A DNA stretch of 64,000 bases, taken from the NCBI GenBank assembly GCA_963735595.1, contig CAVTLK010000001.1, positions 256,001-320,000 of the forward strand. The letters run 5' to 3'. Under the pieces are notes generated by a model, which ran no database searches, had not been told where the DNA came from, and was given only the letters and a program-made list of their open reading frames with translations. Position numbers and translations under genes: made by a program. The stretch is from an uncultured delta proteobacterium (lineage in GTDB: Bacteria > Desulfobacterota > Zymogenia > Zymogenales > Zymogenaceae). Shown piece after piece: positions 15,915 to 18,607 of the stretch (positions within the stretch are counted from its first letter, which is position 1; every line of letters begins with the position of its first letter).

Positions 15915-16107
15915 CCCGACCTCCTTATAAAGAATCGTTCGTTTGACTATCGTCGTTCGATTGAATACGGTTTTATTATGAGCTATCGCTATTATACCGG
16001 GAACGAGGCTATCCATCAAGGCAAAATAAACGATAACTATTGACAACAGGCGGATTGATTGGGTACTATAAACCAACATGAAACGAATACTCGGGTTGAA
16101 CATCTAA

Positions 16108-16704
16108 ATGATAGACTATAAAATAGTGTCCGATGATTCTCTCGTGGCGCAGGCTCAGAAAAAGGATTATCAGGCCTTTGAAGAGCTCGTGAAGCGCTAT
16201 GAGGGTAAGATATATGGCCATACGTTGAGGATGGTTGGAAATCGAGAAGACGCGCAGGACGTATTGCAGGAGACGTTTCTTAACGTATTTAAGAGTTTAG
16301 AGAATTTTCGCGGTGATTCTTCGTTTTCAACATGGATTTACAGGATTGCGACAAACAATGCGCTGATGCGTTTGAGGAAGCTCTCCCATGCTGAACGCGA
16401 ATTAAACGATGAGCTCCCGCCTCCCGAATCGATGAAACGGCAAGCCCTGGCAAGCCATATACTTGATCCGAAGGATGCATTCCTCGAAAAAGAGATGCTG
16501 CGGGAGTTGGACAAGGCCGTGGAACGGCTGCCGGAAAAATACCGAACGATCTTCCTTCTCCGGGACGTGGAGGAGTTTTCCACCGAGAGGACGGCTACTG
16601 TCCTCGGCATTTCGGAGGCGGCTGTAAAATCCCGTCTTCATCGGGCTCGGCTTTTTATCCGGGAGGCACTGCTTAGGAAATTTGAGGGGAAGACGGAGTC
16701 GTAA
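16108..16704 (+). CDS. ECF RNA polymerase sigma-70 factor
   Basis: DAQDVLQETFL, FSTWIYRIATN (region 2); LPEKYRTIFLLRD...AVKSRLHRAR (region 4). Confidence 0.95.
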   Translation: MIDYKIVSDDSLVAQAQKKDYQAFEELVKRYEGKIYGHTLRMVGNREDAQDVLQETFLNVFKSLENFRGDSSFSTWIYRIATNNALMRLRKLSHAERELNDELPPPESMKRQALASHILDPKDAFLEKEMLRELDKAVERLPEKYRTIFLLRDVEEFSTERTATVLGISEAAVKSRLHRARLFIREALLRKFEGKTES

Positions 16705-16706
16705 AC

Positions 16707-16967
16707 ATGAACGAACATCACGAGTGCAAGGACTGCAAGAAGATATTCGAGAAGCTGTCGGAATACATCGATAAAGAGCTTAATGAAGAAGAATGCCTTG
16801 TATTCGAGGAGCATATCAGGAATTGTAAACCCTGCCTCGATTTTCTCGAAAGCCTTCACTGTACCATCAATCTCTGCAGGCGGCTTGACAATCAAGAGTC
16901 GTACCGAATACCCCGTGACGTGAGCGTCCAACTGCACGAGTTCCTTAAGAAAGAATGCAAACTGTAA
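16707..16967 (+). CDS. Soluble zinc-binding anti-sigma factor (zf-HC2/ZAS)
   Basis: C...LSEYIDKEL...HIRNCKPC (HxxxCxxC); Cys-rich; no TM segment; directly after the ECF sigma. Confidence 0.92.
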   Translation: MNEHHECKDCKKIFEKLSEYIDKELNEEECLVFEEHIRNCKPCLDFLESLHCTINLCRRLDNQESYRIPRDVSVQLHEFLKKECKL

Positions 16968-17015
16968 CAGATCGAATGGAATCATGGTTGCCCTGTAGGA
17001 AACGGCGGCTGTAAT

Positions 17016-17228
17016 ATGAAACAATATATAAAAATAGCGGCGGGGACGGTACTGGGCTTCATCAGCGGGTGGATCCTCGGATTGGTGGTCCAATACGCCG
17101 GTTCCACGTGAACGGTATTTTGCCATCCGGCGGTTCCGGCCGTATTAGGCGGGATCATCGGGTTGGCCCTGGCCCTGGGAGGGCCGGAAGGCGGGAAATC
17201 GGGAAAAGGGATGCGAGGTGATACATAG
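17016..17228 (+). CDS. Unannotated 70-aa two-TM protein with in-frame UGA (candidate selenoprotein, DUF6132-like)
   Basis: MKQYIKIAAGTVLGFISGWILGLVVQYAGST-U(TGA 17109-17111)-TVFCHPAVPAVLGGIIGLALALGGPEGGKSGKGMRGDT*; its TAG overlaps the trxB GTG; SECIS-like hairpin at 17112-17143. Confidence 0.72.
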
Positions 17229-18181
17229 TGAATATACCGGAATATGATCTGGTCATCATTGGTGCCGGTCCCGCCGGTCTAACGGCTGCGCTCTATGGGG
17301 GAAGGGGTGGATTGAAAACCCTTGTTCTCGAGCGGATGTCGGCAGGTGGACACGCGGCGATGACCGATGCCATTGAAAACTACCCCGGATTCCCCGAAGG
17401 GATATCCGGAACGGCGCTCGCCGAATCCATGGAGAAACAGACCAGGAAATTCGGCGCCTCCTTCAAGACGATTACCGAAGTGACTAAACTCGACCGTGCC
17501 GATGAGCTGTTCACGGTTACGGCCGGCGATGAGATGTTTACCGGTAAGGCCGTTATCGTCGCCTCCGGGGCCGATCCAACGAAGCTCGGCGTACCGCGGG
17601 AGGATGAGCTTATCGGCAAGGGGGTGAGCTATTGCGCCGTTTGTGACGGAGCATTTTTCAAGGGGGCGCAGGTAGCCGTTATCGGCGGAGGCAATTCCGC
17701 GTTGGAAGAGGCGATCTATTTAACGCGATATGCGAAACGGGTATACCTGATTCACCGCCGGGACAGGTTCAGAGCCGATAAGATACTTACCGATCGCGCG
17801 CTCTCTCACCCCTCGATCGAAGTTGTCATGGAGACCGTCGTCGAAGAGATAATTGGAGACCGGGCGGTGTCGGCGGTTAAGCTTAAAAACGTAAAGACAT
17901 CACAGACCAAGACCCTGGCGATCGAGGGGATATTCATATACGCCGGGTACCGGCCGAACACGGAGTATCTCACGGGTGTTGTTGATCTGGACGAGGTCGG
18001 GTGCATTGTCACCGACGCTGAAATGGCCACAGGTGTCCCGGGTCTTTTTGCGGCCGGGGACGTGAGGTCAAAGGGTCTCAGGCAGGTGGTCACGGCGGCG
18101 GGTGACGGCGCGACGGCGGCCTACTCGGCGGAAAAATATATCGAAGCCATGGAAAACCGTCAGTATGGGGAATTCAAGTGA
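17228..18181 (+). CDS. trxB: Thioredoxin-disulfide reductase
   Basis: IIGAGPAGLTAA, IENYPGF, GVSYCAVCDG, GGGNSA, HRRD, AAGDVR. Confidence 0.97.
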   Translation: MNIPEYDLVIIGAGPAGLTAALYGGRGGLKTLVLERMSAGGHAAMTDAIENYPGFPEGISGTALAESMEKQTRKFGASFKTITEVTKLDRADELFTVTAGDEMFTGKAVIVASGADPTKLGVPREDELIGKGVSYCAVCDGAFFKGAQVAVIGGGNSALEEAIYLTRYAKRVYLIHRRDRFRADKILTDRALSHPSIEVVMETVVEEIIGDRAVSAVKLKNVKTSQTKTLAIEGIFIYAGYRPNTEYLTGVVDLDEVGCIVTDAEMATGVPGLFAAGDVRSKGLRQVVTAAGDGATAAYSAEKYIEAMENRQYGEFK

Positions 18182-18243
18182 AACTGGAGCTGCCGGCAGA
18201 ATACCGGGTCATTACAAAACAATATAAAGTAACGAGGTGAACG

Positions 18244-18456
18244 ATGCCTATCTATGAATATCGCTGCGCCAGATGCGCGAAGGAGTTCGAGGTACTGCAA
18301 AAACCGACCGACGGGCCGGAGGGCGTTGTCTGTCCATCCTGTGGTAACCCAAAGGCGGAAAAGATTCTTTCGTCGTGTTGCGCCCCGTCATCCCATAAGT
18401 CGGAGGGGGTGTCCGGGACTTCATCCTGCTCGACACGTAAGTTTGGCTGACGGTAA
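18244..18456 (+). CDS. FmdB-family zinc-ribbon protein, candidate C-terminal selenocysteine (...CSTRKFG-U-R*)
   Basis: MPIYEYRCxxC...FE...CPSCG motif; TGA 18448-18450 followed by CGG TAA and a SECIS-like hairpin. Ends at 18450 if UGA is a stop. Confidence 0.8.
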
Positions 18457-18500
18457 ACGTACCCCTGAGTATCAGGGGAAGGATGTTGGAGCACTAAGCG

Positions 18501-18535
18501 GACACACGGACACTACTGGTGTCGGTGTGTCTTTT
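18501..18535 (+). terminator. Intrinsic terminator of the ECF-trxB-fmdB operon
   Basis: GACACAC-g-GACAC-tactg-GTGTC-g-GTGTGTC-TTTT. Confidence 0.7.
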
Positions 18536-18607
18536 ATTGTCGAACATGGTAGACTATCAGATCGCACCGCACACTGGACGGAGAAGATCTGATGAGGATT
18601 TAGACCG

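Follow-up and report, generated by a model that had tools for sequence, protein, structure and literature searches.

A five-gene operon on the forward strand of a 64,000-nucleotide stretch of DNA from an uncultured delta proteobacterium of the family Zymogenaceae (contig CAVTLK010000001.1, positions 256,001 to 320,000; the whole stretch is referred to below as the window) probably encodes two selenoproteins whose UGA codons are decoded as selenocysteine (Sec, U), and which are likely to form a selenol/thiol redox relay that is induced by thiol stress and fed by the thioredoxin system. The operon (16108-18456) consists of genes for an extracytoplasmic function (ECF) sigma factor, an anti-sigma factor, a DUF6132-type membrane protein, the thioredoxin reductase TrxB and an FmdB-family zinc ribbon. 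The two parts of this reading differ in strength: with high confidence both small proteins, the membrane protein and the zinc ribbon, are true selenoproteins, while their role in a relay, which we infer from thioredoxin fusions and conserved gene neighbours, is tentative and falls somewhat short of an even chance. Two protein families would thereby join the bacterial selenoproteins, both of which are cut by annotation to stumps of 31 and of 68-70 amino acids. The membrane form is found in 48 of the 401 genomes searched from the phylum, to all appearance the Desulfobacterota with their sulfate reducers and syntrophs, and the zinc-ribbon form in nearly every homologue examined. The presence of both genes in one unit with a regulator of redox-sensing type and a thioredoxin reductase provides a first testable hypothesis for the two families, with thiol oxidants as the condition under which to look.

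Two small genes with conserved in-frame UGA codons

The third gene of the operon (17016-17228, + strand) is predicted to encode a two-helix membrane selenoprotein of 70 amino acids, which belongs to a Sec branch of DUF6132 and in which an in-frame UGA (17109-17111, + strand) specifies residue 32, within the loop G-S-T-U-T-V-F-C-H-P. A search of 61 related genomes with the read-through protein returned homologues with TGA at the same place. When a profile built from eight homologues of the membrane protein (profile A1) was run over the 401 genomes, 57 matches were obtained, of which the 51 credible ones (E <= 2.4e-4), in 48 genomes, all contain the TGA; the six weakest matches have no TGA and are sited within long unrelated frames. 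Coding conservation was seen on both flanks of the internal TGA among all 51 credible matches, and each of the 30 loci returned translates to an open reading frame (ORF) of 50-70 residues with the loop G-x-x-U-x-x-x-C-[HNS]-P. Most of the 95 hits that the profile gave among 1.84 billion representative proteins are forms with Cys at the Sec column. Tryptophan occupies this column in four database entries, as expected of gene calls made under a code in which TGA is read as Trp, and two other entries are halves cut at the TGA. In an alignment of eight Sec and 30 Cys forms (A4) only three columns are invariant, the Sec column among them, with Cys in 30 of the 30 Cys forms.

The family assignment runs through these Cys forms. 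Pfam DUF6132 (PF19628) is matched at E <= 0.01 by 10 of the 14 Cys forms scanned, seven of them above the gathering score (the homologues P0006 and P0024, for example, reach 49.8 and 56.6 bits against a gathering score of 23.2), and four of the 14 carry a C-terminal thioredoxin domain, three of which also match DUF6132. Like the window protein, the DUF6132 Cys forms have two glycine-rich helices and a loop, here G-x-x-C-x-L-x-C-N-P, with the invariant Cys of which the window Sec aligns; these forms, which are stand-alone or fused to thioredoxin, differ in having Cys where the window protein has Sec. Judged by its sequence, the window's membrane protein is a divergent relative of DUF6132 rather than a scored member, tied to the family by way of its homologues. 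At one further locus (L030/L052, G033:C296) a stand-alone DUF6132-Sec gene lies directly upstream of a large ORF resembling molybdopterin oxidoreductases, unlike the thioredoxin-linked neighbourhoods described below.

A hairpin resembling a Sec insertion sequence (SECIS) is located within the coding sequence of the membrane gene (17122-17167, + strand), with the apical loop GUAUUA at 17142-17147, as indicated by folding and by comparison with relatives. In the 29 sequences compared, the hairpin has 18 pairs and begins 14 nt downstream from the U of the UGA. Pairing is found in 76.1% of cells as compared with 33-44% when the partners are slid, two-sided changes occur in 12 of the 18 pairs, and 0 of 500 shuffles match the observed values, although the structure tested was drawn by hand from one member and lies inside coding sequence, and the count leans in favour of it. 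RNAalifold alone recovers only 6 pairs. No match was obtained in an Rfam search of the window at gathering thresholds, and no bacterial SECIS family was among the results.

The last gene of the operon (18244-18456, + strand) is predicted to encode an FmdB-family zinc-ribbon selenoprotein (TIGR02605, 58.1 bits), again of 70 amino acids, which ends R-K-F-G-U-R. The UGA for the penultimate residue (18448-18450, + strand) is followed by CGG and TAA and is conserved in homologues. At 15 of 29 DUF6132-Sec loci the next gene downstream, in the same orientation, is an FmdB gene, and each of these 15 ends F-[S/T/G]-TGA-x(1-2)-stop. A profile of the 15 proteins has homologues in 391 of the 401 genomes; the DNA was read for the 30 best FmdB loci and for 40 further ones, giving 64 distinct homologues that were scored (of the 40 further stretches, five had no start motif under the pattern used and were left unscored, and a sixth, L119, was set aside for an internal TGA). 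The first stop is TGA in 64 of the 64 homologues, against a background of 1940 of the 4569 long ORFs in the window's own genome. In 63 of the 64, just one or two codons separate this TGA from a second stop, as compared with 107 (5.5%) of the 1940 long ORFs that end in TGA. By contrast, the Sec-tail pattern was seen in 0 of 10 FmdB homologues from five complete genomes without a selA match, one of which (G035) was checked for selB and has none over the cut-off. The two nearest homologues in selA-less genomes have Cys-rich tails (...GCSC-TAA and ...CASCK-TAA), which are of low complexity and not strictly alignable.

Past the true stop of the zinc-ribbon gene there is a second SECIS-like hairpin (18462-18478, + strand), with a 7-bp stem (18462-18468 paired to 18472-18478) and the loop GUA (18469-18471). 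A hairpin begins 9-21 nt past the TGA in 63 of the 64 homologues. Where only perfect stems that start 6-29 nt past the TGA are counted, 43 of the 64 have one of 7 bp or more, as against 261 of the 1940 controls, and 63 of the 64 have one of 5 bp or more, as against 1054 of the 1940. The stem sequences vary between lineages, and the loops are mostly GUC, GUU, GGA, GUA or CGUGA, which we take to resemble the apical loops of known bacterial SECIS elements, in which a G is present. A distinct terminator comes after it at several loci, and also in the window, which shows that this hairpin does not itself serve as the terminator; and with Sec placed just before the stop, the SECIS element must lie in the 3' untranslated region. 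A SECIS element wholly past the stop codon would be useful for the prediction and engineering of selenoproteins. The first-pass annotation of this DNA had put a hairpin loop 18-19 nt downstream of both UGAs, which holds for the zinc ribbon (18 nt, loop GUA), but for the membrane gene the best fold is longer (17122-17167) and its loop lies further downstream. Homologues in the same gene order with TAA or TAG at the two sites and no hairpin, which the annotation had named as an observation that would refute its proposal, were not encountered: every relative examined retains both the TGA and the hairpin. The UGA of the membrane gene is very probably decoded as Sec, and very probably so is that of the zinc ribbon.

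FmdB selenoproteins as such have been predicted before, from Global Ocean Sampling reads (Zhang and Gladyshev 2008; PMC2398784), and the Sec form is given as U/CxxU or UxxU (PMC9312934; PMC13188914). These ocean proteins belong to the same zinc-ribbon family (TIGR02605) and likewise have a predicted Sec, which is however placed in the CxxC zinc knuckle, whereas the window protein keeps all four knuckle Cys residues and has its Sec next to last in the tail, the SECIS element lying past the stop. Sec at the extreme C-terminus is found in the UXX-star (NF041114, NF041211) and KCU-star (NF033934) families (Table 1 of PMC13188914), in which it also stands one to three residues before the stop, but the folds differ from that of the window zinc ribbon. 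The zinc ribbon matched seven families at E <= 1 and no UXX-star or KCU-star model among them, and NF041114 and NF041211 are absent among the first 25 of the 46 families matched by its 15 relatives. NF041197 (dual CXXC motif small (seleno)protein) was considered and rejected, the best score in the window's own genome being 15.9 bits against a cut-off of 40 bits and located elsewhere in the genome; two of the 15 zinc-ribbon relatives match this model, at E 0.022. The 119-family catalogue of prokaryotic selenoproteins of 2026 (Table 1 of PMC13188914) contains neither DUF6132/PF19628 nor an FmdB protein with C-terminal Sec, listing FmdB only with Sec in the knuckle. NCBIfam 20.0 holds no dedicated model for either small protein, and full-text literature searches returned nothing relevant on DUF6132, on zinc-ribbon selenoproteins with a C-terminal UGA, or on selenoproteins in combination with an anti-sigma factor, ECF and thioredoxin reductase together.

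Two side observations concern the zinc ribbon. The homologue that was set aside, L119 (G005:C4:227392-227720), is an FmdB protein from a genome of the same family as the window that ends R-F-S-U-R and has an extra TGA right after the second C-P-S-C knuckle, where its relatives have Gly; this extra TGA could encode another Sec or could stem from a mutation or an error. Furthermore, many more distant FmdB proteins (P0171-P0217, from sources such as Zixibacteria and Syntrophorhabdales) end ...G-F-T or ...G-F-S, which suggests, from the protein records, a hidden Sec tail well beyond the phylum.

Link to the thioredoxin system and proposed role

Thioredoxin fusions and gene neighbourhood are two independent kinds of evidence that tie the membrane family to the thioredoxin system. 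Besides the fused Cys forms, a thioredoxin gene is located directly upstream of DUF6132-Sec at 11 of the 29 loci, these 11 being from another family, with FmdB-Sec downstream in 10 of those 11, and trxB adjoins DUF6132-Sec at 5 of the 29. The complete five-gene order (sigma factor, anti-sigma factor, DUF6132-Sec, trxB, FmdB-Sec) recurs in five genomes of two genera of the window's family. The combination, which the first-pass annotation did not know as a described system, is not confined to the window, and each of the two small-protein families is widespread. The argument drawn there from the absence of a thioredoxin gene in the operon proves little: apart from the operon trxB no gene in the genome scores over the TIGR01292 cut-off, and TrxB has an ordinary partner, because a canonical thioredoxin is encoded on another contig.

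The regulatory pair at the head of the operon resembles two known ones. SigR-RsrA of Streptomyces and SigH-RshA of Mycobacterium are disulfide-stress systems that induce trxB/trxA. As in these systems, the gene after that for the ECF sigma factor encodes a small, soluble anti-sigma factor bearing an HxxxCxxC motif, the control region is shared with thioredoxin reductase, and the likely zinc ligands (C10, H36, C40 and C43) occupy nearly the positions seen in RsrA. The differences are that the window anti-sigma factor falls under the cut-off of the RsrA equivalog (TIGR03988, 29.1 bits against 62.5), that the sigma factor scores below every equivalog cut-off, that trxB lies inside the sigma operon together with two predicted selenoprotein genes, and that the host is not an actinobacterium.

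In the proposed relay, the RsrA-like anti-sigma factor would release the sigma factor once its thiols are oxidised, and the sigma factor would increase transcription of its own operon. SelB would then bind each hairpin, so that Sec is inserted at residue 32 of the membrane protein, in the U-x3-C loop between the two helices, and at the last residue but one of the zinc ribbon, in a flexible tail C-x6-U-R. NADPH-driven TrxB, directly or via thioredoxin, would keep both selenols reduced, and the soluble tail and the membrane-anchored loop, each with its Sec, together could deliver reducing equivalents to targets at the membrane.

Two putative control elements precede the sigma gene. A sigma-70-like promoter, TTGACA-N18-TACTAT (16040-16069, + strand), was found in a consensus scan with 10 of 12 matches, and both of its hexamers are invariant in five of five aligned genomes of the two genera (alignment A5). 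The second element, TGAAAC-N16-CATCTA (16079-16106, + strand), ends 1 nt before the sigma ATG and is a candidate ECF-type autoregulatory promoter; its hexamers are likewise invariant in five of five genomes, the spacer differing in G006. There is no Shine-Dalgarno sequence between this element and the ATG, and the sigma mRNA may be leaderless or the element may be an operator.

Several observations weigh against the relay or against the assignment of the small genes. At 13 of the 29 DUF6132-Sec loci no thioredoxin-system gene is found within 1.5 kb, and the adjacency of trxB may reflect shared regulation only. The TGAAAC-N16-CATCTA element presumably resembles promoters of the sigma-W type. 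TGAAAC-N15-17-C[AG]TCTA has three matches genome-wide as compared with 2.6 expected by chance, a level that points to no particular regulon. In a sediment metatranscriptome library, one contig of 151 nt matches 16824-16969 (146 nt, in the anti-sigma gene) with 4 differences, which is no proof of transcription; for trxB the four sequencing runs examined in detail gave only conserved snippets of 33-40 nt from other organisms, and none of 24 runs shared half of the operon's sequence words. For the membrane protein of the window, neither Pfam nor NCBIfam gave a match at E <= 0.1, and its AlphaFold model, with helices at residues 2-27 and 39-54 and the Sec loop between them, is of low confidence (pLDDT 62.5) and was used for the two-helix layout alone. 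Folded as single sequences, both hairpins are weak (z -1.69 and -1.82) and rise above chance only alongside their relatives. Finally, there is no strictly alignable Cys form of the zinc ribbon among the 120 best of 881 profile hits (a word-index protein search with the window zinc ribbon gave 3 hits).

The main rival to the relay accepts both proteins as true selenoproteins but assigns them to the binding or traffic of soft metals or metalloids (mercury, copper, arsenic, selenium), with the U-x3-C(-H) loop and the C...U tail as ligands and TrxB merely co-regulated. The genus-specific loop U-T-V-F-C-H-P, in which His stands beside Cys, would suit such a function, as would the 13 loci that have no thioredoxin-system neighbour, and the Sec of UXX-star and several other recent families has been suggested as a possible metal ligand in a 2026 review (PMC13188914). 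However, a motif-level look at the translated flanks revealed no metal transporter, MerR/ArsR regulator or metallochaperone, the DUF6132 fusions join thioredoxin and not metal-binding domains, and the regulator is of the disulfide-sensing zinc anti-sigma factor (ZAS) type, so that we consider a role in metal handling unlikely and favour the relay.

A more specific form of the relay can be drawn from an analogy. Mammalian thioredoxin reductase has a C-terminal Gly-Cys-Sec-Gly tail, and the zinc ribbon with its -Sec-Gly/Arg end might be a split counterpart of it, that is, a detachable Sec tail of the low-molecular-weight bacterial TrxB, which would take electrons from TrxB or thioredoxin and carry them to the DUF6132 Sec loop. 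Both have a flexible C-terminus with a penultimate Sec, often as -U-G, and the zinc-ribbon gene lies beside one for a pyridine-nucleotide disulfide reductase, to which the mammalian tail is fused. By contrast, the window tail is carried by a separate zinc ribbon of 70 residues, the nearest conserved Cys is 7 residues upstream and none is adjacent to Sec, and the window TrxB is of the low-molecular-weight bacterial type, unlike the mammalian enzyme. We regard such a detachable tail as doubtful; if real, it would constitute a selenium-based route of reducing power to the membrane under thiol stress.

Selenocysteine machinery and genetic code

The machinery for Sec insertion, on the presence of which the first-pass annotation had made its proposal depend, was found in the window's own genome: selB (347.1 bits, summed), selD (355.3 bits) and a tRNA-Sec with the anticodon TCA (75.9 bits), as well as selA (458.8 bits), the last in two frames. 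Each of the nine relatives from the same family matches selA at E <= 1e-60, eight of them at E 1e-170 or better and G005 more weakly (4.1e-66). Among the 48 genomes that carry the membrane Sec form, 45 have selA and the remaining three have selB over the cut-off. The selD gene of the genome itself holds one in-frame TGA; there are two selD-like genes (G000:C3:6046-6975 and C3:24665-25476), one with the in-frame TGA (Sec-type SelD, 355.3 bits) and a second without it (293.4 bits).

The main caveat for this strain is selA, which is present as two overlapping pieces in different frames (G000:C4:329754-331101), with the switch at a run of five G, GGCGGGGGTC, at approximately 330100-330115. Either the assembly is wrong here or the gene is truly defective; we take the frame switch for an assembly indel, because the assembly is 93% complete in only 5 contigs. 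Were the defect real, the two small genes would be selenoprotein genes by descent in which Sec insertion has been lost here through the broken selA, leaving truncated products and decaying genes. This is highly improbable, since both small genes, the TGA-bearing selD, selB and the tRNA-Sec are intact, the same-family relatives all have a selA match, and the completeness and contig number would fit assembly indels. Still less probable is that the UGAs are ordinary stops, with a peptide of 31 residues and a zinc ribbon of 68 residues as the products and with hairpins that are incidental or for mRNA stability. The gene callers agree with such stops, forms of 31 and of 68-70 amino acids being in the database, and single-sequence folds are insignificant and Rfam gave nothing, but the conservation on both flanks of the internal TGA (51 of 51), the presence of Cys in its place in all 30 Cys forms, the second stop that comes after one or two further codons in 63 of the 64 zinc ribbons (background 5.5%), and the absence of the zinc-ribbon pattern from the selA-less genomes examined all argue for Sec. 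A reassigned code with UGA as Trp was rejected; the genetic code is standard, because TGA terminates 1940 of the 4569 long ORFs (42%).

Operon layout and gene identities

The first-pass description of five co-oriented, closely spaced genes that end in a single terminator is borne out by the coordinates, the gaps and the fold, and model scores and sequence agree with the identities it had assigned (ECF sigma factor, soluble HxxxCxxC anti-sigma factor, protein with two transmembrane helices, TrxB and FmdB). In operon order the intergenic gaps are 2, 48, -1 and 62 nt. The shared intrinsic terminator (18500-18540, + strand) consists of an interrupted stem of 14 pairs (18500-18532) followed by UUUUAUUG, and the inner stem was also found in a consensus scan; the fold of 18448-18545, which includes the terminator, has z = -4.9.

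The first gene (16108-16704, + strand) encodes an ECF (group 4) sigma factor of 198 amino acids, which matches Pfam Sigma70_r2 (68.2 bits) and r4_2 (69.3 bits) as well as TIGR02937 (113.5 bits against a cut-off of 42.9) and falls under every equivalog cut-off, the best being NF008888 (176.8 against 204). It is followed by the gene for the soluble ZAS protein of 86 amino acids (16707-16967, + strand; zf-HC2, 43.3 bits), in which the HxxxCxxC motif takes the form H-IRN-C-KP-C and no hydrophobic stretch was found across all 86 residues. TrxB (17228-18181, + strand) has 317 amino acids, the redox centre CAVC and a TIGR01292 score of 396.8 bits against a cut-off of 343.45. Its GTG start shares 1 nt with the TAG of the membrane ORF (TAGTG), and since this TAG is reached only via read-through of the UGA, the overlap is a small argument for read-through.

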